Assembly: GCA_036744835.1 (NCBI GenBank)
Contig: DAIOHD010000001.1
Span: 335,860 to 399,859 of the forward strand
Direction: 5' to 3'
Length of the DNA: 64,000 nucleotides
From: Candidatus Magasanikiibacteriota bacterium
GTDB lineage: Bacteria > Patescibacteriota > Patescibacteriia > Magasanikbacterales > GWA2-37-8
Shown here: in pieces, positions 21,716 through 48,416 of the stretch
Layout of the letters: every line of letters begins with the position of its first letter
Position numbering within the stretch: position 1 is the stretch's first letter
The notes under the pieces: generated by a model
The model's database searches: none
Seen by the model: the letters and a program-made list of their open reading frames with translations, nothing else
Told to the model about the DNA's origin: nothing
Program-made: the position numbers and the translations under genes

Positions 21716-23347
21716 CTATTCCTTTGGATTAATAATTTCTTCTCCTGGTAGATTGCGTATTTTAAGCCATTGTTTTTTCAAAGAGGCTGTTAGAGAAAAA
21801 ACTTCTGGTAGTTGAAAAATATAGCATAAAAAACCATAAGTTAGCAAGCAGAGAAAAGCACTAAGAATAAATTGGAGAAAAACTCCGTAAAATCTGGTTT
21901 GGTCAAAAATATTTTCAAATAAACCGGAAAAATGATTTAAAACCAAATAACTCAAAATCAGACCGGTTATTACTTTAAATAAAAAGATAAAAAGTTTTTT
22001 AAAATTACGATTTTTGAAGTTTAATTGTAATAAAAAGAAAAGTAAAATTACGTTTATAGTTGAGCCGATAACTGTGGCTAAAGCTAAACCGTAAACACCA
22101 AAAGGACGCATCAATAAAATAGCACTGGTTATAGTGATGATTTCGGCTGCCAAGGCGGTAAAAAAAGGAGTCTTGGTGTTGGAAAGTGAATAAAAAGTTC
22201 TGGCCAATAGAGGTATTAAACTTTGGGCTAAAAGACCAAAAGCAAAATAAGCCAAGGTTTTGGAAGTGACTAAAGTGTTTTGCCAACTAAAAGATCCGCT
22301 TCCCAAAATCAAGCGAACAATTTGTGTGTTTAATGCTATAAAAATTATTACTAAAGGAGAAACCAAAAAAATTATTTGTCTAAGCACGGCCATGTATTGT
22401 TGATAAAAACTTTCCAGGTCATTTTTGGCGGAAAGGTTAGAAAGAACTGGAAAAACAGCTAAAGCAAAAGGTATACCGATTAACCCAATAGGCACAGCCT
22501 GTAAATTACTGGCAAAAGTAAATGCTGACAAACTTCCTGAAGGTAGCCAAGAGGCTAAAATTGCGATAACTATTAGATCGAGTTGAACAATAGCTAAACC
22601 GGCAGTTCGGGGGATCATGAGTTTGCCAATAAGACGCATTTCTTTATCTTTGAGGTCAAATATTTTTTTGAAACGAAAACCAGCTTGATAAGCTCCATAA
22701 TACTGGATAATCATATGTAAAAAGGCGCCCAAAATCACACCCATCGCCAGAGCCAAATAACCAAAATATTTAGTTAAATATAGAGCTCCAAAAATAATTC
22801 CCAAATTATAAAAAAGAGGAGCAATAGAAAAAAGAAAAAAACGACGTAATGATTGTAATACTCCTCCAAAGACCATGGACAAGCCAAAAAGAAATGGAGA
22901 TATAAACATCAAACGCATCAAAGAAACAACCATTTCCTGGCCTTGAAAAGAAAAACCAGGAGCGATAAGCGGAGCTAAAAACGGTGCTAAAATTATTCCA
23001 AACAAGCCGAGAACTATCAACAAAACAGAAATGATATTTATGACGTTGTTGGTTAAATCCCAAGCTCTTTGTTCATTTTTTTCTTCTTGATAAAAAAGTT
23101 TGGTAAATATCGGGATAAAACCCGCGGAAAGGGCTCCAATAACCAAAAGATTATAAATTAGATCAGGTATCTTGAAAGCGGCATAATAAGCATCCAAAAT
23201 TTCACCAGCTCCAAATTGATGTGCTAAAACTCGATCACGCAGAAGACCTATAATACGTGAAAGTAAAGTAGCGCCGGAAATAACCAAAGCTGAACCGGCA
23301 ATGGTTTTAAATTCAGTATTTAAATTAAATATTTTTTTAGAAAACAT
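21716..23347 (-). CDS. murJ: Lipid II flippase MurJ (MviN)
   Basis: LLSRIIGLLRDRVLAHQFGAGEILDAYYAAFKIPDLIYNLL, 14 predicted TMs. ATG 23347 chosen; the tool's start at 23383 is a TTG. Confidence 0.85.
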   Translation of the reverse strand: MFSKKIFNLNTEFKTIAGSALVISGATLLSRIIGLLRDRVLAHQFGAGEILDAYYAAFKIPDLIYNLLVIGALSAGFIPIFTKLFYQEEKNEQRAWDLTNNVINIISVLLIVLGLFGIILAPFLAPLIAPGFSFQGQEMVVSLMRLMFISPFLFGLSMVFGGVLQSLRRFFLFSIAPLFYNLGIIFGALYLTKYFGYLALAMGVILGAFLHMIIQYYGAYQAGFRFKKIFDLKDKEMRLIGKLMIPRTAGLAIVQLDLIVIAILASWLPSGSLSAFTFASNLQAVPIGLIGIPFALAVFPVLSNLSAKNDLESFYQQYMAVLRQIIFLVSPLVIIFIALNTQIVRLILGSGSFSWQNTLVTSKTLAYFAFGLLAQSLIPLLARTFYSLSNTKTPFFTALAAEIITITSAILLMRPFGVYGLALATVIGSTINVILLFFLLQLNFKNRNFKKLFIFLFKVITGLILSYLVLNHFSGLFENIFDQTRFYGVFLQFILSAFLCLLTYGFLCYIFQLPEVFSLTASLKKQWLKIRNLPGEEIINPKE

Positions 23348-23369
23348 GATTAAGATTGTATTTTGAAAA

Positions 23370-24044
23370 TTATTTATTTTCAAGTGGCGGCATGTTTAAA
23401 ACTAAAAAAGCGTAAGTCACTTTATTTTTTTGGTTACTTTTATTTTCCGCGTAAATAGTTCCGGTATAACCGTCATTACGAACAAATTCTATTTTCTTAT
23501 AGTCATTGCCCTCGGCGTAAGAATTGATAATAAAATTTTTTCTTTCTAATTCTTTTTGATAGTAATTAAGAAAACTATTGAGATTATTTTCTATATCTTC
23601 CCATTCTATTTTAAAATTATCATTTTTATCTGAAACAGGAGTTGTTAGAGTCTGAAAAAGATTTTTGAAACTTATTTTTTCCTCGGTTTGTTCTTGGTTG
23701 TGTTCGGAATTTAACCAAAGAGGTAATAAAACTAATTTAGGAAAAATAGCCGCTATTTCCATCCGACGATTTTTGTATTCACCGGAAATAAAGGTCATCC
23801 TGACTATTTTTTCTTTATTATGAACAGGTATATCTTCCAATGGAAAATTTAGAGGGATAACGGTAACGGTTTTGGGGCCTGAACCAAGATAAAATTTTAA
23901 TCCGATAAGTAAACCGAAAATTATTAAAAAAATAAAACTACAGCCGAAAAAACAAGACCTCTTTAGGCCAGATGACTTTTTGTTGAGTTCATAAATCGGC
24001 GGATCGACTATTTTTACATCTTTTATGAGATCTTTTCTCTTCAT
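23370..24044 (-). CDS. Hypothetical membrane-anchored protein
   Basis: Single N-terminal TM (CFFGCSFIFLIIFGLLIGL), no recognisable domain. Co-oriented with murJ and lepA. Confidence 0.5.
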   Translation of the reverse strand: MKRKDLIKDVKIVDPPIYELNKKSSGLKRSCFFGCSFIFLIIFGLLIGLKFYLGSGPKTVTVIPLNFPLEDIPVHNKEKIVRMTFISGEYKNRRMEIAAIFPKLVLLPLWLNSEHNQEQTEEKISFKNLFQTLTTPVSDKNDNFKIEWEDIENNLNSFLNYYQKELERKNFIINSYAEGNDYKKIEFVRNDGYTGTIYAENKSNQKNKVTYAFLVLNMPPLENK

Positions 24045-24275: not shown

Positions 24276-25649
24276 ATGAAGATTTCTTTTCATGGAGCGG
24301 CGGGGGAGGTCACTGGTTCTTGCACCATGCTTGAAACTGGTGAACAAAAAATATTGATAGATTGCGGTTTATTTCAAGGTAGTGATTTTGCCGATGGTAA
24401 AAATTTTGAAGATTTTTCTTTTAATCCCAAAGAAATTAGCGCGGTAATTTTAACTCATACCCACCTTGATCATATTGGCAGATTACCAAAACTTATCAGA
24501 GATGGTTTTTCCGGTTTGGTTTATGCCACTCCTCCAACAGCTGATTTGGTAGAATTAGTTTTAGAAGATGCTTATGAAATTATGGAATATAATTACAGAA
24601 AGTTCGGTGCACCACTTTTGTATCGTTTGGAAGATGTCAGATCTGTGATGGCTAGGATAAAAACATTTAATTACGAAGATCCTTTTGAGCTGGGGCGAGG
24701 TCTTTTCAATCGTAATAAATTAAAAGTAACTTTTTATGAGGCGGGCCATATATTTGGTTCTGCTTTTATCGAAATAATTGCTGAAGGAAAGAAATTAATT
24801 TTTTCTGGAGATATTGGAAATATAGACGTGCCTATTTTGAAAGATACCACTGATTTACCGGAAGATGTAGATGTGTTGCTATGCGAGTCAACGTATGGTA
24901 ATCGTCTTCATCCTGCTGGTTTAGATCGTAAAGTAATCATTGAATTAAAAATAAAAGAAGCTTTAATGCGTGGCGGAACCTTATTAATTCCGGCTTTTTC
25001 CATTGAGCGTACTCAAGAGCTTTTATATACATTAAATGAATTGATAGATGTCCAGGGTAAATTTAAAAAAATACCGATATTTTTAGATAGTCCTTTGTCT
25101 ATCCGGGCTACTAGAGTTTTCCAACGCTATACCACATATTATGATGAAAAAGCTTTTGAATATTTGGCGGCTGACCAAAATATTTTTGAATTTCCCAGTT
25201 TGACGCTTTGTGAAACACGAGAAGATTCCAAAAAAATAAATGCGGTCCCAGGCAGTAAGATTATTATTGCCGGGGCGGGAATGATGAATGGTGGTCGTAT
25301 TTTACACCACGCTTTGCGTTATTTGACCGACGAGAGGAGTACGTTGCTTTTTACAGGTTTTCAAGCACCCGGAACGTTGGGTAGAAGGATATTGATGGGT
25401 GAATCACCGGTGCATGTTTTAGGAGAAAGGCTACCGGTAAAATGTCGTATTGATTCTATAGATATTTTATCAGCTCACGGTGATCAAAAAAAACTTATTA
25501 AGTGGCTTGGAAGTGCCAAAAATTGGCCGAAAAAAATATTTTTAAATCATGGAGAAACTGAAGTTATAAATGGCTTTGCTAAAAAAATAAATGAAGAATT
25601 TGGAATAGAGCCAGTTTTGGCCGCTCCGCATACGGAGTATGAGATATAA
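24276..25649 (+). CDS. Beta-CASP family MBL-fold ribonuclease (RNA-metabolising metallo-beta-lactamase)
   Basis: MKISFHGAAGEVTGSCTMLETGEQKILIDCGLFQG...ILTHTHLDHIGRLP (HxHxDH), beta-CASP and RMMBL C-terminal motifs (SAHGDQ). Confidence 0.8.
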   Translation: MKISFHGAAGEVTGSCTMLETGEQKILIDCGLFQGSDFADGKNFEDFSFNPKEISAVILTHTHLDHIGRLPKLIRDGFSGLVYATPPTADLVELVLEDAYEIMEYNYRKFGAPLLYRLEDVRSVMARIKTFNYEDPFELGRGLFNRNKLKVTFYEAGHIFGSAFIEIIAEGKKLIFSGDIGNIDVPILKDTTDLPEDVDVLLCESTYGNRLHPAGLDRKVIIELKIKEALMRGGTLLIPAFSIERTQELLYTLNELIDVQGKFKKIPIFLDSPLSIRATRVFQRYTTYYDEKAFEYLAADQNIFEFPSLTLCETREDSKKINAVPGSKIIIAGAGMMNGGRILHHALRYLTDERSTLLFTGFQAPGTLGRRILMGESPVHVLGERLPVKCRIDSIDILSAHGDQKKLIKWLGSAKNWPKKIFLNHGETEVINGFAKKINEEFGIEPVLAAPHTEYEI

Positions 25650-25796: not shown

Positions 25797-26426
25797 ATGT
25801 CTTTATCAAAGTATTTCATTGATTCGTTTTTAAAAAATTTAAACCAAAGAAGTTCATTAGTGAAATTCATGATTCCTTGGATTAGGAACATGGTAATTTT
25901 ACAGCACGAGGAAAATGACGACGAAGTTAGTTTTTTTGCGGTTGTTGTAGCTGTTGGAAATTATGAATTGTTGTGTAAAGCTTACAACAAACTCCATGTG
26001 CATAAACGCAAAAATGTGCTGAACAAAGTTGATAAAACCGGTACCTCGGTGCTTGATAGGGCATATCTTTTGCCGGTTGAGGAAGCCGATCGAGAAAAAA
26101 TCATTCATTTTCTGAAAAGCCAGGGTGCGGAAATCTTGGGTTACAAAGCTTTGAATCATTTTATCGAAAGAGGAAGTCTTTCGGTAGTGGAAACACTCTG
26201 TAGACATTGCACGGACTTTTCCGCTCACAATAAGTCGGGTAAAACCATTTTGATGGTGGCAGCGGAAAGCGGCCATATGGATATCGTTCGTTATTTGGTA
26301 GAAAAAATAGCTGTTAACCCGGGAGAAAAGAATGATGAAGGGGAAACTGCTGCTGATTTTGCCAAAATCATGGGACACAAGGAAGTGTACGAATATCTGA
26401 AACATAAAATTTCAGATGCCCTTTAA
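25797..26426 (+). CDS. Ankyrin-repeat protein
   Basis: C-terminal half contains ANK repeats (DKTGTSVLDRA..., HNKSGKTILMVAAESGHMDIVRYLVEK..., NDEGETAADFAKIMGHKEVYEYL). GC visibly higher than neighbours; own promoter and terminator. Confidence 0.7.
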   Translation: MSLSKYFIDSFLKNLNQRSSLVKFMIPWIRNMVILQHEENDDEVSFFAVVVAVGNYELLCKAYNKLHVHKRKNVLNKVDKTGTSVLDRAYLLPVEEADREKIIHFLKSQGAEILGYKALNHFIERGSLSVVETLCRHCTDFSAHNKSGKTILMVAAESGHMDIVRYLVEKIAVNPGEKNDEGETAADFAKIMGHKEVYEYLKHKISDAL

Positions 26427-26672: not shown

Positions 26673-27104
26673 ATGTTTATAGGTGAATATTCTCACAATT
26701 TAGATGATAAATTTCGCTTGGCCATTCCGGTCAAATTTCGACGCGAACTTGAGGAGGGGGCGGTTATAACCAAAGGTTTGGATAACTGTTTGTTTTTGTA
26801 TACCAAAAACGAATGGAACAAACTGGCAGAAAAATTGGCGACTTTGCCATTTTCCCAAGCCAATAGCCGCGCGTTCGCTCGACATATGTTGTCCGGAGCT
26901 ATGGAAGTTGAAGTAGACAAGCAAGGGCGCGTAGTGGTTCCCGAATATTTAAGGCAGTTTGCTGGATTAAAAAAGAATTTGATTGTTGCCGGGTTGTATA
27001 ACCGAGTGGAAATTTGGGATGCAGGGTCTTGGAATGTTTATAAAACAAAAACAGAAAAAGATAGTAATGAGATTGCAGAAAACATCAGCGATCTAGGAGT
27101 TTAA
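26673..27104 (+). CDS. mraZ: Transcriptional regulator MraZ
   Basis: MFIGEYSHNLDDKFRLAIPVKFRREL...; duplicated MraZ domain, 143 aa. Confidence 0.9.
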   Translation: MFIGEYSHNLDDKFRLAIPVKFRRELEEGAVITKGLDNCLFLYTKNEWNKLAEKLATLPFSQANSRAFARHMLSGAMEVEVDKQGRVVVPEYLRQFAGLKKNLIVAGLYNRVEIWDAGSWNVYKTKTEKDSNEIAENISDLGV

Positions 27105-27105
27105 T

Positions 27106-28029
27106 ATGAGACACATTCCCGTTCTTTTAAAAGAAGTGCTTGAAGGTTTAAATTTAAAAAAGGGCGCTAAAGTTATTGACTGTACTATGGGAGACGGTGG
27201 TCATAGTGAGGCAATTTTAGAATATATTGGTCCACGAGGAAAATTACTTGGGCTTGATGCTGATCCGGAATCATTACTTCGAGCTAAAAGATTTTTATAT
27301 CGCTTTGAAGATCAAGTTATTTTTATTAGAGAAAATTTTGCTTCTTTGAAGCAAGTAGTCACAGACAGCGGTTTTTTGGGTGTCAACGTAATTTTGTTTG
27401 ATTTAGGCTGGAGTACACCGCAATTTGCCGAACGTAGTCGAGGTTTCAGTTTTGATAAAGACGAACCTTTAAATATGCGTTACGACAATAAGTGTCAGGT
27501 TTTTGGCAAAGAAATGTGTTTGGATGCTTTGCATATAGTCAATAATTATAATCAAGAAGATTTATCTTGGATTTTAAAAAATTACGGCGAAGAAGAATTA
27601 AACAAAGAGATAACCGCGGCTATAATTGCAGAAAGAAAAAACGGACAGATAAAAACCAGTAAAGAATTATCAAATATAATTTTGAAAGTTTATCGACAAA
27701 AATTACATACGGAAAAAGAGATTCCTTGGATCGGGGGAATTCATCCGGCGACAAAAACGTTTCAAGCCTTACGGATTGCGGTAAACAATGAATTGGAAAT
27801 TTTAAAAAATGTTTTGCCGGAGGCATTTGAAATATTGGGTCAGGGTGGTAGATTGGCGGTGATCAGTTTTCATTCGCTTGAAGACAGAATAGTTAAACAA
27901 TTTTTTCAGAGTTTACCATTTGCTAAGGCAAAAATAATTACCAAAAGACCCATAGTGGCCGATGAAAAAGAAATCGAGAGCAATCCTCGCGCGCGAAGCG
28001 CCAAATTACGTATAGTTGAAAAAATATGA
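27106..28029 (+). CDS. rsmH: 16S rRNA (cytosine1402-N4)-methyltransferase RsmH (MraW)
   Basis: MRHIPVLLKEVLEGL...DCTMGDGGHSEAIL...FDLGWST. Confidence 0.9.
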   Translation: MRHIPVLLKEVLEGLNLKKGAKVIDCTMGDGGHSEAILEYIGPRGKLLGLDADPESLLRAKRFLYRFEDQVIFIRENFASLKQVVTDSGFLGVNVILFDLGWSTPQFAERSRGFSFDKDEPLNMRYDNKCQVFGKEMCLDALHIVNNYNQEDLSWILKNYGEEELNKEITAAIIAERKNGQIKTSKELSNIILKVYRQKLHTEKEIPWIGGIHPATKTFQALRIAVNNELEILKNVLPEAFEILGQGGRLAVISFHSLEDRIVKQFFQSLPFAKAKIITKRPIVADEKEIESNPRARSAKLRIVEKI

Positions 28030-28409
28030 TAGATTTATTTAAAAAAATTTATATCAAAATAAATAACTTTTTTGTAGAAGTTACAAATTCCGCTTTGTTT
28101 TTATTGAAAATGCCGGAATGGTTATTTGGGTCAAAATTTCGTTTTGCCTTGGTTTTTGCCAATATTTCACTTATTATCATGTTTGTTTTACAAGTAGCAA
28201 CTACCTCAAGTACTGGTTATGAATTAAAAAAATTAGAAAGAATTACCGAGGAATTAAGTAAAGAACAACAAAAAATAGAAGTAGAGATAACCATGGCTAA
28301 TTCACTTACAAATCTTAGTGCCAAAGTTGCTGATTCTTCAATGACTAGCGTTTCTCGCGTGCAGTATATCAAAACCGCCCCCTCTTTGGTTGCTGTTAGT
28401 ACAAAATAG
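28026..28409 (+). CDS. FtsL-like cell-division protein (single TM + coiled coil)
   Basis: Position after rsmH; TM (FALVFANISLIIMFVLQVA) followed by a coiled coil (ELKKLERITEELSKEQQKIEVEI). Confidence 0.5.
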   Translation: MIDLFKKIYIKINNFFVEVTNSALFLLKMPEWLFGSKFRFALVFANISLIIMFVLQVATTSSTGYELKKLERITEELSKEQQKIEVEITMANSLTNLSAKVADSSMTSVSRVQYIKTAPSLVAVSTK

Positions 28410-28525
28410 ATTTTTTAACTCAACGATAGATTCGCCGAATGAATTTTGGCGAATTTTTTAATTTATGGTAAAATAAAGATAGTCAAATATTCAATCTTTA
28501 AACCAATAGAGCCAATTTTATTTTT

Positions 28526-28876
28526 ATGTTTTTTGTAGCTTTACCAAGATTAATTTTAGAAACTTTTTTAGATTTTTTATATTTTCCTTTGTGGTGGTAT
28601 ACTTTGGGTGCTTTCAAAAGTATCAAGTGGTGTTTAAGTTTAGTGGCGGTAGGAAATGGTCATTTTGCTCCCGGTTTATGGTTGAACAATATTTTTGTTC
28701 CTATGTATGGACAGTATGATATTGAGGGCAGGGTGATAAGTTTTGTTATGCGCCTTTTTCAGATTGTTGTGCGTTTTATAGCTTTGTTTATCTGGGTGAT
28801 TGCTTGTCTGATTTTATTTTTAATTTGGCTATCTTTACCTGCTTTGGTTTTATACGGTTTTTTGTCATTAAAATAA
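28526..28876 (+). CDS. Small polytopic membrane protein
   Basis: 116 aa, 3 hydrophobic segments. Confidence 0.4.
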   Translation: MFFVALPRLILETFLDFLYFPLWWYTLGAFKSIKWCLSLVAVGNGHFAPGLWLNNIFVPMYGQYDIEGRVISFVMRLFQIVVRFIALFIWVIACLILFLIWLSLPALVLYGFLSLK

Positions 28877-28882
28877 TTTTTT

Positions 28883-31648
28883 ATGGAATTCAAAAAAATC
28901 AACCCATTACCTTTGTTGCTTTGCGATGAATGTAAAGAAATCGGTGAAAAACAAAATAATCACCGTTGTAGCAACTGTAAAGGTTTGACCGTTGTTTATC
29001 AACCGCGAGAAAAATTATTATATTGGAAATTTCCTTTGAGTTATTATCGTTTATCGCTTTTACAAACCAGGCTTTGGTGGAATAAAGGACGTAGACTATT
29101 TCTAATTTTACTTTTATTAAATTTTTGGCTTTGGGCCGGTTTTTCTGTTTATGCAGCCGGTCTTTTTTCTTATCTTTGGCAAGGACAGAACTACATCGAT
29201 CTCTTTTTGAAAGGTCTAACGTATTATCAAAAATTATTATTTTTACTCGGAGCTTTGACGTTACTTTATCTTTGGTCTCGGATTATTCGTGAAAAACAGC
29301 ACTTTCAAATCGTTGAAAAACATAGTTATGAAAGCGACGATAAAAATAGACAGCCACGAGAGTTATCATGGGAAGAAATAAAAAAAGTTTCACATCGCCA
29401 ACGTCTAAATATTTCTCAATCTTTTACTCAAGAAGCTGTTTTGTCTATTGTTAAAGCTTGCAAAGAAGCGCAAAAGCTCGGACACAATACGGTTTCGCCT
29501 TTGCACCTATTTTATATTTTATTATCTACCAATAGAATAGCCAATGTGTTTATTCGTCTTGGTTATCCGGTAGATTTTTTACAAAAGAAAATCAGAGAAA
29601 ACCTTTTATTTAAAAATCAAAATACCAGTTTCAATTTTCCTTTGCCGGGAAAAGATTTATTTCAAATATTCTTTTTGGCTTATGAAGAAGCATACGCTTT
29701 CCACCAAGATTATGTTAGTGTGGTAGAATTACTTTCGGCGACGATTTTTTTTACTCCGCAATTACAAGAATTTTTATTTGAACTTGGTTTGGAATCGCCC
29801 AAGATAAAAAATGTGATTATGTGGGCCAGAATCAGAGAGCAACTTTATCGTCAATATGTTAAATATGCCAAAACTCATGCATTGAAACCAAAATCCGGTT
29901 TAGATAGAGCGATGACCGCTGTGGCTACACCTTATTTGAATAATTTTAGCGAGGATATGACGATGATGGCGCGTTTTAACCATTACGACCCTTGTGTGGC
30001 ACGAGATAAAGAAATAGAAGAAATATTTAGAGTAGTTGAAGGTGGCGGTGGAAATATAGTATTGGTTGGGGAAAATGGAGTTGGAAAAATGAGTTTGCTT
30101 GAAGGTTTGGCACAAAAAATGGCGGGAGACGATGTGCCAAAACGTTTGCAAGATAAACGTTTGGTACGACTGAAAATATCTTCTCTTTTATCCGGTACTA
30201 CGCCTGCCGGAGCGGTGGAGAGGGTCAATAATATTTTTTACGAAGTTGCCAAAGCGGGAAATATTATTTTATGTATTCATAATATCCATGAATTGTTTGG
30301 AGTAAGCGCCGGAGGGACTAGTAGTTTGGATGTGGCCGGAGCTTTGGCGGAAAATTTATCCAAAAATAGGTTTTTAACCGTAGCAACTACGAGTTTACAA
30401 GAATATGCCCAGAGCTTCGCCGGTACAACATTAAATAGTGTATTTACCAAAGTAGATGTTCCGGAAATGACTGAAAACCAAGCGATTGCCGTAGTAGAAG
30501 CGAAAATTGGTTATATTGAACATAAACATTCTGTGTTTTTTTCTTATGATGCGATAGAAAAAGCGGTTAAACAAAGTCATAGATTTTTACATGATATTTG
30601 TTTGCCCGGTAGTGCTTTGGAGGTTGTAGTAGAAGCTGCAGCTTTTACCAGAAATCACAAAGGTGTAAATTCTTTAGTTACGGACGAAGAGGTAGCTAAA
30701 ATTATTTCTGATAAAACCGGAGTGCCAATAACTTCTATCACTGCTCAAGAAGGTAGTCGATTGTTAAAATTGGAAGGGGAGATGCACAAAAGAGTTATCG
30801 GTCAAGATGAGGCGGTCCAAGCAGTGGCTTCAGCTTTACGACGTGCGCGTGCGGAAATGCGTTCACAAAATCGTCCTATTTCCACTTTTTTATTTTTGGG
30901 TAGCACCGGGGTGGGGAAAACTGAATTGGCTAAAACTATCGCCGATATTTATTTTGGCGGAGAAAAGAAGATGGTGCGTTTGGATATGAGTGAATATCAA
31001 GATAGTGGCAGTATAACTCGTTTGATAGGCATGCCTGGACAAAAAGGTACCGGATTATTGACTGAAAATATTCGTCGACAACCTTTTTCGCTTTTATTAC
31101 TTGATGAAATAGAAAAAGCGGATAAGGATATTTTAAATTTATTTTTACAAGTGATGGATGATGGTCGTCTAACTGATAGTATTGGGCAAACAGTGGATTT
31201 TACCAATACAATTATTATTGCCACCAGCAATGCGGGTACTTCTTATATCAACGAAAGTCGTAAAGCCGGGTTATCTATGCCGGCAATCAAAGAAAGATTA
31301 TTGCACGGGGAACTCAAACAATATTTTCGTCCTGAATTTTTGAATCGTTTTGACGGGATCGTTTTATTTGAAGATTTAAATAAAGAAGCTTTAAAGAAAA
31401 TTGCCGCTTTGATGTTGAAAAAAACAGCTTTGGAATTACAAAATAAAGGGATTGAATTTGAATATGATGAAGAAGGTTTAGAATTTTTGACTCAAGTTGG
31501 TTTTGATCCAGAGTTTGGTGCCAGACCGATGCGTCGGGCGGTACAAGAAAATGTGGAAAATAAACTCGCTGAATTATTTTTAAGCGGTTATCTCAAGCGA
31601 GGAACCAAAGTAATTTTTAGCGCTAAGGGGGAATTGTTGATAGTTTAA
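28883..31648 (+). CDS. ClpC/ClpB-like AAA+ chaperone with N-terminal Zn-ribbon and two TM helices; NBD1 Walker motifs degenerate
   Basis: CDECKEIGEKQNNHRCSNCKG (CxxC-x11-CxxC); TM segments LFLILLLLNFWLWAGFSVYAAGLF and LLFLLGALTLLYLW; two Clp_N repeats. NBD1 has GENGVGKMS (no T/S after GK) and ILCIHNIHELF (HN replaces the Walker-B DE). NBD2 is intact: FLFLGSTGVGKTELAKT and LLLLDEIEKA. Confidence 0.8.
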   Translation: MEFKKINPLPLLLCDECKEIGEKQNNHRCSNCKGLTVVYQPREKLLYWKFPLSYYRLSLLQTRLWWNKGRRLFLILLLLNFWLWAGFSVYAAGLFSYLWQGQNYIDLFLKGLTYYQKLLFLLGALTLLYLWSRIIREKQHFQIVEKHSYESDDKNRQPRELSWEEIKKVSHRQRLNISQSFTQEAVLSIVKACKEAQKLGHNTVSPLHLFYILLSTNRIANVFIRLGYPVDFLQKKIRENLLFKNQNTSFNFPLPGKDLFQIFFLAYEEAYAFHQDYVSVVELLSATIFFTPQLQEFLFELGLESPKIKNVIMWARIREQLYRQYVKYAKTHALKPKSGLDRAMTAVATPYLNNFSEDMTMMARFNHYDPCVARDKEIEEIFRVVEGGGGNIVLVGENGVGKMSLLEGLAQKMAGDDVPKRLQDKRLVRLKISSLLSGTTPAGAVERVNNIFYEVAKAGNIILCIHNIHELFGVSAGGTSSLDVAGALAENLSKNRFLTVATTSLQEYAQSFAGTTLNSVFTKVDVPEMTENQAIAVVEAKIGYIEHKHSVFFSYDAIEKAVKQSHRFLHDICLPGSALEVVVEAAAFTRNHKGVNSLVTDEEVAKIISDKTGVPITSITAQEGSRLLKLEGEMHKRVIGQDEAVQAVASALRRARAEMRSQNRPISTFLFLGSTGVGKTELAKTIADIYFGGEKKMVRLDMSEYQDSGSITRLIGMPGQKGTGLLTENIRRQPFSLLLLDEIEKADKDILNLFLQVMDDGRLTDSIGQTVDFTNTIIIATSNAGTSYINESRKAGLSMPAIKERLLHGELKQYFRPEFLNRFDGIVLFEDLNKEALKKIAALMLKKTALELQNKGIEFEYDEEGLEFLTQVGFDPEFGARPMRRAVQENVENKLAELFLSGYLKRGTKVIFSAKGELLIV

Positions 31649-31656
31649 TATAAAAT

Positions 31657-32010
31657 ATGTTACTTTTATTAAAATCTCATTTTAAAGACATTTTTGTTTT
31701 TATCGGTTTAACCATTAGTCTGGTTTTTTTTGCTTTGTCTTCTTGGTATATTTTTGGCGAAGTCAATTGGGAAGCGGAAAGATTTTTTTTACATTACAAT
31801 ATTATTTTTGGTGTTGATCGTTTGGGAGAAGTCAGAGATTTATGGCATTTCTTTTTTGGGGCGCTGGGAGTTTTATTATTTAATTATTTTTTATCTTTGT
31901 TTTTGTTTACCAAAGATAAAATTATTTCTCGCATCATAGTTATTTTTGGCGGTATCTGGCAAATATTTATGTTTATTGCTTTGTATTTGATAATTTCTCT
32001 TAACAGTTGA
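31657..32010 (+). CDS. Small membrane protein
   Basis: 117 aa, 3 TMs. Confidence 0.4.
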   Translation: MLLLLKSHFKDIFVFIGLTISLVFFALSSWYIFGEVNWEAERFFLHYNIIFGVDRLGEVRDLWHFFFGALGVLLFNYFLSLFLFTKDKIISRIIVIFGGIWQIFMFIALYLIISLNS

Positions 32011-32011
32011 T

Positions 32012-33118
32012 ATGATTGGTAGAGAATATAAAGTAAAAAAAATCGATTGGAATTACTTTATCTATGTGGCTATATTGGTTTGTTTTGGTTTGGCCATGTT
32101 GGCTTCAGCCAGTGCACCGCTTGGTTATGTAAAATTTAATGATTCTTATTTTTATCTCAAAAGACAGTTGCTGTTCGGAATTTTGCCGGGTATACTGCTT
32201 TTTTTGTTGGCCTTAAAAGTAAATTCTGAACTATTTAGACGTTTAGCTTGGGTTCTTTATTTTGCTTGTATTGTTTTATTGCTTTTATCTTTTGTTCCCG
32301 GACTATCTTTGGTAGTTAATCATGCCAAGAGTTGGGTACAAATTTTTGGTTTTAGTTTTCAACCCGCGGAGTTTATGAAATTGGGTTTGATTTTTTTACT
32401 GGCTTCCATGCTTTCCGATCCTCGGCGTGATTTGCGAGATTGGCAATACGGTTTATTGCCGGTACTGGTTTTTATTGCGATTCCGCTTGGTTTGGTTTTG
32501 TTACAACCGGATTTGGGTACAATGTTTATTTTGGGAATTATCGCTTTTTTTATTTTATTTTCTGCTAAAATTCCTTGGAGTTATCTTCTGGTTCTAGGTC
32601 TTTTGGGAATAGTAGTTTTTAGTGCCATGGTGATAGTCAAGCCTTATCGCATGGATAGGTTGAATATGTTTATGCATCCGGAACTTGATCCGCAAGGTGT
32701 TGGTTACCATGTTAACCAAGCGTTTTTAGCTGTAGGATCAGGAGGTTTTTGGGGTTTGGGCTATGGACACTCTAGACAAAAATATCAATATTTACCAGAA
32801 GTGAACGCTGATTCTGTTTATGCGGTTATTGCCGAAGAAATGGGATTTGTGGTAGCCGGAGGTTTGATTTTTTTAATTTTAGTAATAGCAATGCGGGGTT
32901 TGAAAATAGCCAGAGAGCAAAGCGATGATTTCAATCGTTATGTGGTGGTGGGAGTAACAGCTTGGTTTTTTTGTCAGTCAGTAATAAATATCGGGGCAAT
33001 GGTTGGTATAATGCCTTTGACGGGTGTACCTCTCCCTTTTGTTTCACACGGTGGTTCGGCGATGTTAGCGGCTCTTGTCGGTGTGGGTGTGGTTTTAAAT
33101 ATTAGTAGAAACGATTAA
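32012..33118 (+). CDS. ftsW: SEDS-family peptidoglycan glycosyltransferase (FtsW/RodA)
   Basis: 10-TM profile, FTEF-like loop and PLPFVSHGGSAMLAA C-terminal SEDS motif. Confidence 0.8.
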   Translation: MIGREYKVKKIDWNYFIYVAILVCFGLAMLASASAPLGYVKFNDSYFYLKRQLLFGILPGILLFLLALKVNSELFRRLAWVLYFACIVLLLLSFVPGLSLVVNHAKSWVQIFGFSFQPAEFMKLGLIFLLASMLSDPRRDLRDWQYGLLPVLVFIAIPLGLVLLQPDLGTMFILGIIAFFILFSAKIPWSYLLVLGLLGIVVFSAMVIVKPYRMDRLNMFMHPELDPQGVGYHVNQAFLAVGSGGFWGLGYGHSRQKYQYLPEVNADSVYAVIAEEMGFVVAGGLIFLILVIAMRGLKIAREQSDDFNRYVVVGVTAWFFCQSVINIGAMVGIMPLTGVPLPFVSHGGSAMLAALVGVGVVLNISRND

Positions 33119-33246
33119 TTTCAATGTTGTACATGGTGTGTGAAACATTGAAAATGTGTAAAATTTGACAAAAATCTTAAAATATTCAAATAATTAATAA
33201 ATCCGTCTTTTTTAGACGGTTATATTAAATAATTTAGATAAAATTT

Positions 33247-34302
33247 ATGAATCTACTTGTTTGTGGCGGAGCCGGTTTTATCGGGTCCAATTTTATCCGC
33301 TATATGATAAATAAATATCCGGATTATAAAATCGTCAATTATGATAAATTGACCTATGCTGGTAATTTAGAAAATCTGAAAGACGTGGAAAATAATCCAA
33401 ATTATATCTTTGTCCAAGGCGATATCGTGGATTTGGAATATTTGGATAAAGTTGTTAAAGAACATAGTATAACTCACGTGATAAATTTTGCGGCGGAAAC
33501 GCATGTGGATAGATCTATTCACGGTGGTTGTAAAGATTTTGTTTTGACCAATACTTTGGGTGTGCAGATGATTTTGGATGCGGTACGCAACAATAATTTA
33601 AAAAAATTCGTCAATGTTTCTACAGATGAAGTATATGGTTCACTGGAACTAGATGAAGAAAGACTTTTTACGGAAGATACCCCGATAGAACCAAATATGC
33701 CTTATGCAGCGGCTAAAGCCGGCGGTGATTTGATGTGTCGCGCTTATTTTGCCACACATAAAGTTCCGGTGGTAGTTACTCATTGTTCCAACAATTATGG
33801 CTCTTATCAGTTTCCGGAAAAATTGATTCCTTTCTTTATATTTAAGCTTCTCAAAGGAGAAAAAGTTCCGGTTTATGGTGATGGTTTAAATGTTCGTGAT
33901 TGGATTCATGTAGTTGATCATGCAAGGGCTTTAGATTTGCTTTTACACAAAGGCATTCCTGGTGAAGTCTATAATATTGGAGTTGACAATGAAAGAAATA
34001 ATTTAGAAATTACCAAATTGATTTTAAAATTAATGAATTTAGGCGAGGATAGGATAGAATATATTACTGACAGGCCAGGGCACGATAGACGTTATGCTAT
34101 TGATGCAAGTAAAATATTATCTTTGGGTTGGAATCCGGAATATAACAGAGAAAAATTTGAACAAGGCCTGAAAGAAACTATAGATTGGTATTTGAGTAAT
34201 CAACCGTGGGTGGAAAATCTTTGGCAAAAAAAGAAAGGTGAGATGAATAAATTTCAAAATAGTTTAGAAAGATCTCAAGATAAAATGAAATCTTCAACTT
34301 AA
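33247..34302 (+). CDS. rfbB: dTDP-glucose 4,6-dehydratase
   Basis: MNLLVCGGAGFIGSNFIRYMINKYPDYKIVNYDKLTYAGNLENL, YAAAKAGGD (YxxxK). Confidence 0.9.
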   Translation: MNLLVCGGAGFIGSNFIRYMINKYPDYKIVNYDKLTYAGNLENLKDVENNPNYIFVQGDIVDLEYLDKVVKEHSITHVINFAAETHVDRSIHGGCKDFVLTNTLGVQMILDAVRNNNLKKFVNVSTDEVYGSLELDEERLFTEDTPIEPNMPYAAAKAGGDLMCRAYFATHKVPVVVTHCSNNYGSYQFPEKLIPFFIFKLLKGEKVPVYGDGLNVRDWIHVVDHARALDLLLHKGIPGEVYNIGVDNERNNLEITKLILKLMNLGEDRIEYITDRPGHDRRYAIDASKILSLGWNPEYNREKFEQGLKETIDWYLSNQPWVENLWQKKKGEMNKFQNSLERSQDKMKSST

Positions 34303-34311
34303 TTTATCTAT

Positions 34312-34725
34312 ATGCAAAAATTTCAACAATTTTCCATCAAAAAAATAGAAGTTCCGGGTAAATTTGTTATGAGTCCGGTGGAGCTCAAAGATTACATAGA
34401 CTTTGAAGTAAAAAGAATTTATTATATCACCAAGGTGGAAGCTCCGACCGGTGCTCATTGTCATAAAGTAGAAGAAGAATTGTTTATTTTACTTTCCGGT
34501 ACTTGCACGGCGGTGGTAGACAAAGGAAACGGTTTGGAAGAAATCTCGATGAGTGGACCGACCGATGCACTCTATGTTCCAGGTTATGTCTGGCACCATT
34601 TTAAGGATTTTTCTTCCGATGCTATATTGTTAGCTATTTCTTCAACCAATTACAATCCCGATAGAAGCGATTATATAGAAAATTACGAAGAATATTTAAA
34701 AATAAGAGATGAAAAATTGAAATAA
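34312..34725 (+). CDS. Cupin sugar 3,4-ketoisomerase (FdtA/WxcM-like)
   Basis: 137 aa; AHCHKVEEELFILLSGTCTAVVD...LYVPGYVWHHF pattern of TDP-4-oxo-6-deoxyglucose 3,4-isomerases. Confidence 0.6.
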   Translation: MQKFQQFSIKKIEVPGKFVMSPVELKDYIDFEVKRIYYITKVEAPTGAHCHKVEEELFILLSGTCTAVVDKGNGLEEISMSGPTDALYVPGYVWHHFKDFSSDAILLAISSTNYNPDRSDYIENYEEYLKIRDEKLK

Positions 34726-34726
34726 T

Positions 34727-35581
34727 ATGAAAGTTTTAATTTTGGGCTACAAAGGAATGCTTGGCCAAGCTTTGATCGATGAATTTAAAAACAACGGTTA
34801 TGAAACCGTGCTTTGGGATAAAGAAGACGTAGATGTCGGTGATTTTGAACTACTGAAAGATAAAATAAAAGAAGTAAAGCCTGATATTTTGATAAATGCT
34901 ACGGCCGTAAATGCCGTGGACAAGATAGAAGAAGACCCGGCTGTTTTTGAATTGGCCTGGAAAATTAATGGTGAAGCAATAGGAAGTTTAGCGGAAATTT
35001 GCAAAGAGCAAAATATTGTTTTTGTTCACTATTCGTCAGACTATGTTTTTTATGGTGATAAAAAAGAAGGTTATGATGAAAAAAGTGAAACCAATCCCGT
35101 GGATAAATATGGAGAAACAAAAGTCAGGGGAGAAAAACTGTTGCAAGAAAAAGGGGATAAATATTATTTAATCCGTTTATCTAAATTATTCGGTAAACCG
35201 GCGATTGCAGAAGGTGCCAAGAAAAGCTTTGTAGATACTATGATTTGGTTAGCAACCGAAGGTGGAAAAACACACCTTGATTTGGTGGATGAGGAAATCA
35301 GTTCTCCGACTTATGCGCCGGATTTGGCAAGATTTACCAGGGTGTTATTGGAAGAACAAAAAACTTTTGGAATTTATCATGGAACCAATAGCGGGGTTTG
35401 TAGTTGGTATGAATTGGGAAAAGAGACATTTGAATTGAAAAATATCAAAATAGACATTGCGCCGGTTAGCGGGGATAAATTCCAGAGACCCGCAAAAAGA
35501 CCGGTTTATTCGGAACTCAAAAATACGAAAATGCCACTACAGAGAAGTTGGCAAGAGGCGCTCAAAGAGTATTTGAAATAA
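34727..35581 (+). CDS. rfbD: dTDP-4-dehydrorhamnose reductase
   Basis: MKVLILGYKGMLGQAL..., YSSDYVF..YGETK. Confidence 0.8.
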   Translation: MKVLILGYKGMLGQALIDEFKNNGYETVLWDKEDVDVGDFELLKDKIKEVKPDILINATAVNAVDKIEEDPAVFELAWKINGEAIGSLAEICKEQNIVFVHYSSDYVFYGDKKEGYDEKSETNPVDKYGETKVRGEKLLQEKGDKYYLIRLSKLFGKPAIAEGAKKSFVDTMIWLATEGGKTHLDLVDEEISSPTYAPDLARFTRVLLEEQKTFGIYHGTNSGVCSWYELGKETFELKNIKIDIAPVSGDKFQRPAKRPVYSELKNTKMPLQRSWQEALKEYLK

Positions 35582-35593
35582 ATTAGCAAAAAA

Positions 35594-35617
35594 CAGCCCA
35601 AACAGGGCTGTTTTTTG
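35594..35617 (+). terminator. Intrinsic terminator after rfbD
   Basis: cagccc-aaaca-gggctg-tttttt. Confidence 0.8.
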
Positions 35618-35625
35618 TTTTAATC

Positions 35626-35654
35626 TTGACAAAATAGTCAAAATGTGCTAATCT
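35626..35654 (+). promoter_or_regulatory. Promoter TTGACA-17-TAATCT (near-copy of the 17378 and 52404 promoters)
   Basis: ttgacaaaatagtcaaaatgtgctaatct. Confidence 0.6.
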
Positions 35655-35706
35655 AAGTCCGTGTTCTTTGTTAGTTTCATAAACTTTTTTTGGAAGAGGT
35701 AAAAAC

Positions 35707-36165
35707 ATGACCAAGTACAAGCAGTGGGATCTGTTGACCGATGACGAGAAGTACAATCTGTGTAATCTCGGCCCCGACGGCAAGAAACAGTTCTACGAGG
35801 TCATCATGGGCCAGTACGGGCAGCCGCTCATCGTGGCCGAACCCGACAGGGCCTTCCCGTGTCCGGCGACGCTCGAGTATGTCAACGCCAAGGGCGAAAC
35901 GGCCGTTCCGACCGAGAAGATCGCCGGAATAATCTGTTCCGACGGTAAGCGTTTCTCGCTGACCAACGCCGCCAACAAAGGGATCAAGATCGAGACCAAG
36001 GAAAACGGTTCCATCCAGATCGACGACGAGATCTGGTGGATCAAGACCTTGTTCCAGAAAGACAAGAACCGCATCATCAACTACGATGCGTACCTTTCGC
36101 CGGACAAGCCGGAGAAGGTCAAAATCCTTGAACTGGCCGACCTCACGGCTCATCTCTGTTCCTAA
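35707..36165 (+). CDS. High-GC 152-aa hypothetical protein (compositional island inside the rhamnose locus)
   Basis: GGAAGAGG SD 7 nt upstream. The ORF is visibly ~50-55% GC against ~30% background; all six frames are open across it. Own promoter and strong terminator. No recognisable domain. Confidence 0.6.
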   Translation: MTKYKQWDLLTDDEKYNLCNLGPDGKKQFYEVIMGQYGQPLIVAEPDRAFPCPATLEYVNAKGETAVPTEKIAGIICSDGKRFSLTNAANKGIKIETKENGSIQIDDEIWWIKTLFQKDKNRIINYDAYLSPDKPEKVKILELADLTAHLCS

Positions 36166-36185
36166 ACCTAAAGTTCTGAATTTCC

Positions 36186-36214
36186 CGGCCCCGCTTTATT
36201 GCGGGGCTTTTTTA
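36186..36214 (+). terminator. Intrinsic terminator
   Basis: gccccgc-tttatt-gcggggc-tttttt. Confidence 0.8.
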
Positions 36215-36284
36215 ATCCGTGAATGAATTTACAAAAAACATTTTTGGTGATAAAATCAAAGTAATCTTTTTAATCAAAAATTTT

Positions 36285-37343
36285 ATGAAAATTCTAGATA
36301 ATTTAGCCAAAATCAAGCAATTGGATAGTAAAAGCATGCTTCACAGTATTGAATTGCTGGATCAGCAAATAAAAGAGGTAGAAAAAGCGGTTAAAACTAT
36401 CAAAATCCCGAAAAATTATAAAAAGTTTGAAAATGTGGTTGTATGCGGGATGGGTGGTTCGGCACTAGGCGCGCATCTGATAAAAAGTTTATATAAAAAC
36501 GATTTGAAAGTTTCACTTAATATTGTTAATGGCTATCATCTGCCTGGATTTGCGGATAAAAATACTTTGGTGATACTTAGTAGTTATTCTGGAAATACGG
36601 AAGAAGTTTTATCTTGTGCCAGCGAGGCTAAAAAGAAAAAATGCAAAATCGCTATAATTGCCTCGGGCGGTAAATTGGCGATTTTGAGTAAAAAAGAAAA
36701 ATATCCGTCTTTGATTTTTACGACAAATAATAATCCGTGCGGATCACCTCGAATGGGACTAGGTTATTCAATAGTTGGACAGATTTATTTATTTTCTAAA
36801 TTGGGTTTGTTGAAAGTTAAAACCGACGAATTGAAAAAAATTCCGGATTTAGCAGGGGAGTTAAATAATAAATTTGGTGTTAAAATAAAAAGTGTTTTGA
36901 AAGATATTGCCGAAAAAACAAAAGGCAAATCCGTGTGGTTTGTCGCAGCTGAGCATCTGGCAGGTTCCGCTCATATTGCCGCCAATCAGATGAATGAAAA
37001 TGCCAAACGTTTTGCCGGATATTTTCTCATCCCGGAACTCAATCATCATCTGATGGAAGGAATGATAAATCCCAAAAGCAATAAAGATAATTTATTGTTT
37101 GTATTTTTGGAATCGGATTTATATAGTGATAATTTCAAAAAACGTTTTGTCTTGACCAAAGAAATTTTGAAAATGAATAAAATAAATTTTGTTTCTATCA
37201 AAGCAAAAGAAAAATCCGCTTTGGATCAAACCATGGAAATATTAGTTATCAGTTCTTATTTGAGTTTTTATTCTGCGATGGTGGAGGGGATTGACCCAAC
37301 GGCTATTCCTTTCGTGGACTTTTTTAAGAAAAAATTGGCTTAA
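36285..37343 (+). CDS. Bifunctional phosphoglucose/phosphomannose isomerase (SIS domain)
   Basis: VVCGMGGSALGAHL...ILSSYSGNTEEVLSCASEAKKKKCKIAIIASGG tandem SIS motifs. Start moved to ATG 36285 (MKILDNLAKI). Confidence 0.7.
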   Translation: MKILDNLAKIKQLDSKSMLHSIELLDQQIKEVEKAVKTIKIPKNYKKFENVVVCGMGGSALGAHLIKSLYKNDLKVSLNIVNGYHLPGFADKNTLVILSSYSGNTEEVLSCASEAKKKKCKIAIIASGGKLAILSKKEKYPSLIFTTNNNPCGSPRMGLGYSIVGQIYLFSKLGLLKVKTDELKKIPDLAGELNNKFGVKIKSVLKDIAEKTKGKSVWFVAAEHLAGSAHIAANQMNENAKRFAGYFLIPELNHHLMEGMINPKSNKDNLLFVFLESDLYSDNFKKRFVLTKEILKMNKINFVSIKAKEKSALDQTMEILVISSYLSFYSAMVEGIDPTAIPFVDFFKKKLA

Positions 37344-37388
37344 TTATTATTAAAACTTACTTGCTTATTAGCTTACTTGCTTAATTAT

Positions 37389-38267: not shown

Positions 38268-38268
38268 T

Positions 38269-39312: not shown

Positions 39313-39318
39313 TTTTGT

Positions 39319-41248: not shown

Positions 41249-41250
41249 TT

Positions 41251-48365: not shown

Positions 48366-48416
48366 TCTTTTGATTAGTTCCTTGAAAATAAACAACCTTT
48401 CTATTTGGAGGATATC

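Follow-up and report, generated by a model that had tools for sequence, protein, structure and literature searches.

The 64,000-nucleotide stretch of Candidatus Magasanikiibacteriota DNA analysed here (contig DAIOHD010000001.1, positions 335,860 to 399,859; hereafter the window, with coordinates counted from its first letter) encodes a 921-residue, membrane-anchored relative of the Clp/Hsp100 ATPases whose first ATPase ring is degenerate and whose second is intact by its motifs. Judged by gene order, the region is best described as a truncated head of the division and cell-wall (dcw) cluster, mraZ-rsmH-ftsL, beside a Patescibacteria-specific operon whose core consists of a small membrane protein gene, sm1, and the Hsp100-derived ATPase gene. 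Textbook Hsp100/Clp proteins are soluble machines that thread their substrates; their hallmarks are a pair of working rings, pore loops with aromatic residues, and a ClpP loop or else an M-domain. The family described here keeps the fold and, by motifs, one working ring, but none of the other hallmarks; new to it are a zinc finger, an anchor in the membrane and a dedicated small membrane partner. What might such an ATPase do? We propose, with a probability of roughly 0.45, that it acts independently of ClpP and threads no polypeptide, but spends ATP as a membrane remodeller or switch that serves the enzymes of envelope synthesis. The architectural parts of this composite proposal are near-certain; the functional parts we infer.

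The gene (28883–31648, plus strand) was characterised with Pfam, alignment and an AlphaFold2 (AF2) model. By domain content and fold, its product belongs to class I of the Clp/Hsp100 superfamily. Pfam finds, in order, Clp_N (PF02861, 22.0 bits against a cutoff of 20.7), a first ATPase domain (D1) with AAA_lid_9 (PF17871, 33.1 against 22.8), AAA_2 as the second ATPase domain, D2 (PF07724, 174 against 27), and ClpB_D2-small (PF10431, 80.7 against 21.9). The best sequence match is the ClpC structure 3j3t (1.5e-129), Foldseek places ClpC and ClpB at the top of its matches in the PDB, with TM-scores up to 0.84 on the target, and the model, built with 79 homologues, has a mean predicted local distance difference test score (pLDDT) of 81.5. 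The NCBIfam equivalogs all score far under their cutoffs: TIGR03346 (ClpB), the top match, reaches 535.8 bits against 1232, TIGR02639 (ClpA) 489.5 against 993, ClpG 435.7 and ClpK 435.9 against 1900 each, and ClpV 420.3 against 885. Going by defining features, the protein fits none of ClpC, ClpA, ClpE, ClpB, ClpG, ClpK and ClpV.

At its amino terminus the protein carries a cytoplasmic Cys4 zinc ribbon (residues 12–48; 28916–29026, plus strand), recognisable from invariant cysteines in the pattern C14xxC17-x11-C29xxC32 and from beta strands in the model, and then an amphipathic helix running into a first transmembrane (TM) segment, a short outside loop and a second TM segment (residues 54–139; 29042–29299, plus strand; model helices 54–91 and 114–139). 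A first-pass annotation, made from the sequence alone, had pointed to both the ribbon and the two TM helices, and both hold family-wide: of the 108 family sequences with an N-terminus, 106–107 keep all four cysteines, and the two hydrophobic peaks recur across the family alignment. Over 79 sequences the mean count of lysine plus arginine is 4.6 ahead of TM1, falls to 1.3 in the loop and rises to 3.7 past TM2, a positive-inside pattern that therefore indicates an N-in/C-in hairpin, with zinc ribbon and ATPase both in the cytoplasm. The family consensus of the ribbon, CPxCxGTG...CxxCxG, fits the DnaJ motif CxxCxGxG by eye; DnaJ_CXXCXGXG (PF00684) gives weak, sub-threshold matches in 17 of 28 family N-modules (best E 0.0011) and 14 bits for the window protein, against a cutoff of 32.7. 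Beyond the hairpin lies Clp_N (PF02861; residues 181–331; 29423–29875, plus strand), modelled as eight helices and aligning to ClpC residues 6–150. The paired GTEH motifs of Clp_N, which we take to be the phospho-arginine-binding sites of ClpC, read SPLH and SVVE when the protein is aligned to B. subtilis ClpC, and the family consensus at these positions is xVxPxHLF and YVSVTELL.

The first ring module, D1 (residues 346–592; 29918–30658, plus strand), is a pseudo-ATPase by its motifs, which we read from a residue-level alignment to B. subtilis ClpC and then from an alignment of 118 full-length sequences among the best 120 relatives. Walker A is GENGVGKMS against GEPGVGKTA in ClpC, and the residue after GxGK in the family is R in 54 sequences, K in 42 and M, T or S in six each; Walker B is ILCIHNIH against ILFIDELH, with a family pattern of I-[H77/N21/Q9]-N113. 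The first-pass annotation had called the domain dead from these two motifs (GVGKM and IHN, where ClpC has GVGKT and IDE), and the loss extends beyond what it described. The pore loop GTTPAGA stands where ClpC has GTKYRGE, so that the pore tyrosine is gone, and the segment LNSVFT replaces LERRFQ, the ERRF of ClpC having become [GSK]-x-V-F across the family, so that both arginine fingers are gone as well; none of the 118 aligned relatives has a pore aromatic or arginine fingers in D1. What D1 retains is the P-loop lysine (112/118) and the sensor-1 threonine, without the Mg-coordinating threonine, the catalytic acids or the trans arginine fingers. Mean family identity to the window protein is 62% in D1, 68% in D2 and 37–39% in the N-module. 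The D1 value therefore implies strong purifying selection on the "dead" ring, which reads as a conserved pseudo-enzyme rather than a decaying domain.

D2 with its small domain (residues 593–921; 30659–31648, plus strand) is canonical, as had been proposed: Walker A (GSTGVGKT) and Walker B (LLLLDEIEKA) match the ClpC alignment, sensor 1, the arginine finger and sensor 2 are present, and the corresponding family motifs G-P/S-T-G-V-G-K-T, LLLDE, T-S-N, NRFD and GARPMRR vary little or not at all among the 118 sequences. D2 thus appears, by motif, to hold everything needed for ATP hydrolysis. Its pore loop is another matter. In the window protein it reads RLIGMPGQKGTGLLTE, four residues shorter than that of ClpC (PPGYVGYEEGG) and without an aromatic, and the family pattern is G-[ATMS]-P-G-[E81/Q24]-K110-G-[TS]-G (n = 118). 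In none of the 118 sequences does either ring have an aromatic pore-loop residue.

How widespread is this protein? In the database, 346 proteins match it at E ≤ 1e-50, and the best 120 of these are 52–82% identical to it, nearly all about 880–954 residues long and covered at 95–100%. Relatives are encoded in 211 species-representative genomes (one genome per species scanned), and together with the shared features of the 118 full-length sequences this argues that the protein is not a one-off or an assembly artefact. Full-text literature searches turned up no description of the family, and databases call its members "Clp protease ATP-binding subunit" or "hypothetical". The window has a GC content of about 33%, and the nearest named relatives of its proteins belong to Candidatus Magasanikbacteria, within the Patescibacteria, or Candidate Phyla Radiation (CPR). 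Many public records of metagenome-assembled genomes with the locus (L003–L082) are titled "uncultured Gammaproteobacteria bacterium"; these titles are almost certainly placeholders or mislabels, as sequence, gene order and named relatives all point to Patescibacteria.

An exhaustive search of 1.84 billion representative proteins with a profile that spans the N-module, from ribbon through hairpin to linker, gave only 163 hits, all of them fragments, two-ring proteins of about 890–960 residues or members of a discrete class of about 590–630 residues, and on this evidence the module seems confined to one superfamily. In the shorter class the N-module and Clp_N are followed by a degenerate D1 with its lid, and D2 is missing. 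In four loci (L083, L084, L088 and L089) the next gene begins 6–183 bp past the stop codon of the D1-only gene, which shows that the class is not a truncation artefact; one D1-only cluster holds a Candidatus Falkowbacteria record. Among 31 distant two-ring members, D1 never has a DE Walker B, arginine fingers or a pore aromatic, and the D2 Walker motifs are always intact. Their D2 pore loop differs greatly from one to the next in both length and sequence; the APPGF kept by two of them (P0220 and P0259) points to a canonical, threading Hsp100 as ancestor.

These observations tell against the first-pass description of the protein as an unfoldase: no aromatic pore-loop residue is found in either ring, and forms that lack the motor ring altogether occur at the same locus. 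To our knowledge, every characterised AAA+ motor that threads protein has, in one ring or both, a pore-loop residue that is aromatic or else bulky and hydrophobic. Because the gripping and threading elements are missing or hypervariable, we regard a switch or local remodelling of partners as more probable than processive unfolding. An alternative would be an FtsH-like extractase or quality-control motor for membrane proteins, devoid of a protease, that threads its clients with charged pore loops, its gene neighbourhood being incidental. Such a motor would make sense of the two-TM N-terminal anchor, which, as in FtsH and Msp1, brings the face where substrate enters up to the membrane, of a D2 that is fully ATPase-competent by motifs, of a Clp_N domain and DnaJ-like zinc finger that could bind clients, and of a PGEKG loop that is conserved within the clade and so functionally constrained. 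It would also have to thread without an aromatic pore-loop residue in either ring, through a D2 loop whose hypervariability across the superfamily is unusual for a gripping element, and it leaves unexplained why D1-only forms persist at the same locus and why envelope genes are so tightly coupled to it. We consider it rather improbable.

Could the protein instead be an ordinary ClpC/ClpA-type partner of ClpP? The source annotations say so, naming it an "ATP-dependent Clp protease ATP-binding subunit", and ClpC structures are its best matches in both sequence and fold. The ClpC docking loop (KYVGFNVQ...) is represented, however, by a shorter RKAGLSMPA; no [LIV]-G-[FL] docking tripeptide was found at the aligned K-A-G-L-S, where the first position of the tripeptide varies in the family (A69/N15/S8/E7/K4). 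We considered AGL (795–797) as a degenerate ClpP loop and rejected it on this variability and on the model, in which AGLS (795–798) is a tight, ClpB-like four-residue turn between helices 786–794 and 799–808 with no extended loop. The check for a ClpP-binding loop that the first-pass annotation had called for thus came out negative in both family alignment and model. With D1 dead, scores far under the NCBIfam cutoffs, and no M-domain or pore tyrosines besides, we give this alternative next to no credence, and the label "Clp protease ATP-binding subunit" needs correcting in view of the absent ClpP-docking element. Pfam and NCBIfam find no peptidase M41 or other peptidase domain in the 921-residue protein.

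The same annotation had suggested that absence of the ClpP loop would favour a disaggregase-type role, and a stand-alone ClpB/ClpG-type disaggregase for heat or stress tolerance, tethered to the membrane by chance, would indeed lack that loop as ClpB does; one D1-only homologue, moreover, lies directly after an hrcA-grpE-hsp20-dnaK-dnaJ operon. The suggestion did not survive closer reading. Residues 590 to 594 of the protein correspond to ClpC residues 403 to 466, leaving no M-domain for coupling to DnaK, and the AF2 model has no coiled-coil insertion. The D1 ATPase and both pore tyrosines, needed for disaggregation, are absent, the ClpG and ClpK scores of 436 bits fall well short of the 1900 cutoff, and the heat-shock adjacency occurs in one locus only. 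A disaggregase is therefore very unlikely.

Our proposal draws instead on the company that the gene keeps, which we surveyed by calling and clustering open reading frames (ORFs) in 82 related loci plus the window; ORF starts are longest-ORF calls, and individual gap values are approximate. The clusters hold 64 mraZ, 67 rsmH, 67 ftsL-like, 73 sm1 and 81 Clp-like genes. The closest neighbour is sm1, which in the window (28526–28876, plus strand) encodes a 116-residue helical-hairpin membrane protein and lies immediately 5′ of the Clp-like gene in 70 of the 76 loci that are informative; an antisense ORF-calling artefact accounts for five of the other six. Its family comprises 2859 clusters, all hypothetical and, where named, all from Patescibacteria. 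The AF2 model of sm1 (pLDDT 86.9) is a long helical hairpin (helices 5–47 and 66–114) joined by an invariant N.FVPMYGQYD loop; a fold search against the PDB gave nothing (best E 4.7), and neither sm1 nor sm2, the small gene that follows the ATPase gene in the window, matches a Pfam or NCBIfam family. A hidden Markov model of sm1 hits the ORF directly 5′ of the distant two-ring genes in L085, L086 and L087 (E 1e-31 to 1e-36), and gave no hit beside the D1-only forms in L083 and L084, the two searched.

Downstream, the most frequent partner is a Glycos_transf_4 gene, found directly 3′ of the Clp-like gene in 48 loci and one gene further in nine, and followed by DUF192 and rplU genes; it is still 3′ in L085, L086 and all four D1-only loci. 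In four representatives the NCBIfam WecA model scores 87–127 bits, above the 40–85 bits of MraY, and the gene has a DRxH[IL][HY] motif, which is WecA/TagO-like, MraY having HHH. On these grounds we assign it as a WecA/TagO-like polyprenyl-phosphate GlcNAc-1-P transferase. An identification as MraY, which would have put the Clp-like gene in the ftsI-murE-murF slot, was rejected since WecA outscored MraY in all four tested; the gene is easily taken for MraY, and its annotation deserves the same care as that of the ATPase. In 12 of about 81 loci, the window included, the Clp-like gene is followed by sm2 and ftsW, and sm2 is present only in these 12. The median gaps are 3 bp from sm1 to the Clp-like gene, 3 bp from there to the WecA-like gene or to sm2, and 1 bp both from the WecA-like gene to DUF192 and from sm2 to ftsW; wider medians separate ftsL from sm1 (81 bp, 46 loci) and DUF192 from rplU (94 bp). 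The invariant core of the module, as gene order defines it, is sm1 plus the Clp-like gene, usually followed by a WecA/TagO-like transferase.

What, then, of the division genes? In the window seven ORFs on the plus strand run from 26673 to 33118 in the order mraZ, rsmH, ftsL-like, sm1, Clp-like, sm2 and ftsW, just as the first-pass annotation had read them. The gene mraZ (26673–27104; PF02381, 1.5e-38; TIGR00242, 146 bits, over the cutoff) is followed by rsmH, or mraW (27106–28029; PF01795, 2.4e-95; TIGR00006, 299 bits, over the cutoff), and by a gene (28026–28409) for a 127-residue, single-pass, coiled-coil membrane protein. The assignment of the last as FtsL-like is weak, its profile score (NF053549, FtsL_Actino, 2.9e-6) being 27 bits against a cutoff of 55, and is backed by its position after rsmH and its cluster of 67 homologues. 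The ftsL–sm1 spacer holds a terminator-like hairpin with a 12-bp stem and T-run (28428–28456, plus strand), overlapped by a promoter-like site (28446–28474, plus strand), both from pattern scans. Past the ATPase come sm2 (31657–32010, plus strand), a subclade-specific gene for a 117-residue, three-TM membrane protein, and ftsW of the SEDS family (32012–33118; PF01098, 1.3e-96; TIGR02614, 349.8 bits against 337.5, with the RodA model under its own cutoff), followed by a palindromic, terminator-like hairpin from the same scan (33203–33219, without assigned strand). Operon boundaries are here drawn from spacing and pattern scans.

The canonical dcw order is mraZ-rsmH-ftsL-ftsI-murE-murF-mraY-murD-ftsW, of which the window shows the head, mraZ-rsmH-ftsL, plus ftsW. 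No penicillin-binding protein (ftsI), Mur ligase or MraY-family gene was found within the 64-kb window; other wall genes are scattered through it, with murB at 886–1827 and murJ at 21716–23383 on the minus strand. The first-pass annotation had concluded that ftsI and the mur genes were replaced by the Clp-like gene. Their absence from the block and the window stands, but the replacement does not: in two related genomes the module has a class-B penicillin-binding protein (PF03717 and PF00905) and a Mur ligase as neighbours, in the orders ftsI-murF-x-mraZ-rsmH-ftsL-sm1-CLP (L080) and ftsI-murF-sm1-CLP (L037), CLP being the Clp-like gene. These genes are thus displaced in a fragmented dcw region rather than replaced, and a loss of ftsI is ruled out by the protein with PBP_dimer and Transpeptidase domains and the Mur ligase in those two genomes.

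A second claim, that the ATPase belongs to the division cluster and remodels or quality-controls division proteins such as FtsL and FtsW at the septum as a divisome-associated unfoldase, is supported in part. Across Magasanikbacteria the mraZ-rsmH-ftsL genes lie directly upstream in about 64–67 of 81 loci (about 67 for ftsL), ftsW follows in the window and in 11 other loci, and in L037 ftsI-murF precede sm1 and the Clp-like gene. The linkage is absent, however, from the loci of distant relatives, where the 5′ genes are tgt, ATP synthase, glycosyltransferases or the hrcA-grpE-hsp20-dnaK-dnaJ operon. Even within Magasanikbacteria a median spacer of 81 bp, holding a terminator-like hairpin in the window, separates ftsL from sm1, against gaps of 1–3 bp inside the module, the commonest downstream gene is WecA/TagO-like rather than a division gene, and neither ring has the aromatic pore loop of an unfoldase. 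A divisome role of this kind is unlikely, in our view, though it deserves some weight. The observations that the first-pass annotation had named as telling against it did not materialise: linkage to ftsL is conserved in the Magasanikbacteria, the TM and zinc module is present in orthologues, and the D1 motifs are degenerate upon careful alignment.

In one distant locus (L084, 1–10896) a D1-only gene follows directly on the hrcA-grpE-hsp20-dnaK-...-dnaJ heat-shock operon, a single case in which the gene may have kept its ancestral place by a chaperone operon.

How would a membrane remodeller or switch of the kind we propose work? The ATPase would form a hexamer whose N-terminal (D1) face lies against the membrane, as in FtsH, together with sm1. 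D1 would serve as a nucleotide-binding or nucleotide-sensing assembly ring, in the manner of the D1 of Pex1/Pex6 or the D2 of NSF, and D2 would be the sole motor. The turnover of ATP would then power local remodelling of partners embedded in the membrane, or else a conformational switch, with no part for hand-over-hand threading, ClpP-coupled degradation or DnaK-coupled disaggregation. Zinc ribbon and Clp_N are the candidate partner-binding module, and the likely clients or partners are the polyprenyl-phosphate-dependent enzymes whose genes follow at 1–3 bp: the WecA/TagO-like one in most lineages, and FtsW with sm2 in the subclade of the window. The D1-only forms suggest that the anchor, Clp_N and D1 also have an ATP-independent scaffolding or binding part. 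Hexamer formation, sm1 binding and ATPase activity we infer from architecture and gene order.

Several points weigh against this proposal. All genomes concerned are uncultivated metagenome-assembled genomes, and adjacency is no proof of physical or functional interaction; L087 has sm1 and the Clp-like gene without an envelope gene downstream; the conserved PGEKG loop (K in 110/118) might still have its own way of gripping a substrate; and APPGF is retained by a few distant members, so that threading keeps some probability. A bolder version would make sm1 and the ATPase a Patescibacteria-specific membrane machine that gates or energises the synthesis or export of lipid-linked precursors, through WecA/TagO-like enzymes or FtsW/SEDS proteins, instead of processing proteins, and that became fixed in the division and cell-wall locus in Magasanikbacteria. 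Here a ring of at least 12 TM helices would sit under a stack of one motor ring and one pseudo-ring with charged (Glu-Lys) pore loops. We hold this version to be doubtful.

In working logic, the more general switch or remodeller most resembles, by analogy, type-II AAA+ proteins with one dead ring, such as Pex1/Pex6, and the Torsin-LAP1 pair; its membrane geometry would be FtsH-like. Torsin is related to the Hsp100 D2, lacks an aromatic pore loop, is membrane-associated and works with the TM cofactors LAP1 and LULL1, which carry a degenerate AAA-like domain. What the two would share, a motor ring combined with a dead AAA-like module and a TM partner, is an analogy, with no homology shown beyond the AAA+ fold, and Torsin is lumenal and has no arginine finger of its own, whereas the present protein is bacterial and cytoplasmic, has an invariant NRFD in D2 and carries its dead module in cis. 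Pex1/Pex6 is a type-II AAA+ complex with one degenerate, non-hydrolysing ring and the other as motor, working at a membrane (PMC9265785). It belongs to another AAA+ clade, relies on a separate anchor protein and has aromatic D2 pore loops, whereas here the anchor is in cis and the loops are non-aromatic. NSF is the mirror image of the Pex1/Pex6 ring arrangement. FtsH, Msp1 and LonB, implicated in membrane-protein surveillance and the regulation of envelope enzymes, share the N-terminal TM anchor (two TM helices in FtsH) and a ring that faces the membrane; the Patescibacteria protein differs in having no M41 or Lon protease domain, two rings instead of one, membership of another AAA+ clade and no aromatic pore loop.

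Among the Hsp100 proteins themselves, ClpC and ClpE, the class-I partners of ClpP in Firmicutes and Actinobacteria, have the same order of Clp_N, D1, D2 and D2-small domain, and an N-terminal Cys4 zinc module is borne by ClpE and by ClpX. Unlike ClpC and ClpE, the Patescibacteria protein has a TM hairpin, a dead D1, an obligate small membrane partner gene, and neither M-domain, VGF/IGF loop nor pore tyrosines. With ClpB and Hsp104 it shares two rings without a ClpP-docking loop and a helix-turn-helix at that position; it departs from them in its membrane anchor, its inactive D1 and its lack of the long M-domain coiled coil and of pore tyrosines. The family may thus be seen as a natural experiment in the repurposing of an unfoldase scaffold, comparable to Torsin or Pex1/Pex6 and under purifying selection in hundreds of species, and it is a candidate lineage-specific factor in CPR envelope biogenesis or division.

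The surroundings of the module vary between subclades. In the window, the genes 3′ of ftsW (33247–42345) comprise rmlB-like, a cupin-like ORF, rmlD-like, a PGI/SIS protein, four family-2 glycosyltransferase (GT2) genes and rmlA (41215–42345), and past this dTDP-rhamnose and glycosyltransferase cluster come the minus-strand genes recR-ybaB-dnaB, which in most relatives stand directly after the WecA-like gene, DUF192 and rplU. On this gene order the subclade of the window appears to have swapped the latter segment for sm2-ftsW and a polysaccharide cluster. Between the rmlD-like and PGI-like genes lies an island of about 460 bp (35700–36200) with 53–63% GC and long ORFs on both strands (35707–36165, plus, 152 residues; 35677–36153, minus, 158 residues). 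No Rfam family, tRNA or tmRNA was found in it (35.7–36.2 kb); a foreign insertion is one possibility, a structured RNA of an undescribed kind another.

On the other side of the module, directly 5′ of mraZ, a 209-residue ankyrin-repeat protein (25797–26426) has homologues at the same position in only two related loci, its cluster holding three genes with the window's own included. Bacteria seldom carry such a protein, and it may have a bearing on life as an episymbiont. Further upstream, a gene for a 224-residue membrane protein without a Pfam or NCBIfam family (23370–24044, minus strand) adjoins murJ, near which there is also a beta-CASP/RMMBL, RNase J-like gene (24276–25649, plus strand); many Magasanikbacteria loci have both in synteny 5′ of mraZ, and their clusters count 32 and 55 members.

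Towards the far end of the window, a ThyX-like ORF of 459 residues (48405–49784) lies in a region of elevated GC content (about 40%), and its Thy1 domain covers residues 20–228 only, which leaves the C-terminal half without an assignment. The region with the lowest GC content in the window (about 29%) carries type III restriction-modification genes, mod (57398–59113) and res (60827–63547), with an OLD-family AAA_15/TOPRIM nuclease (59079–60860) between them, and the whole segment from 57398 to 63547 is probably a defence island.

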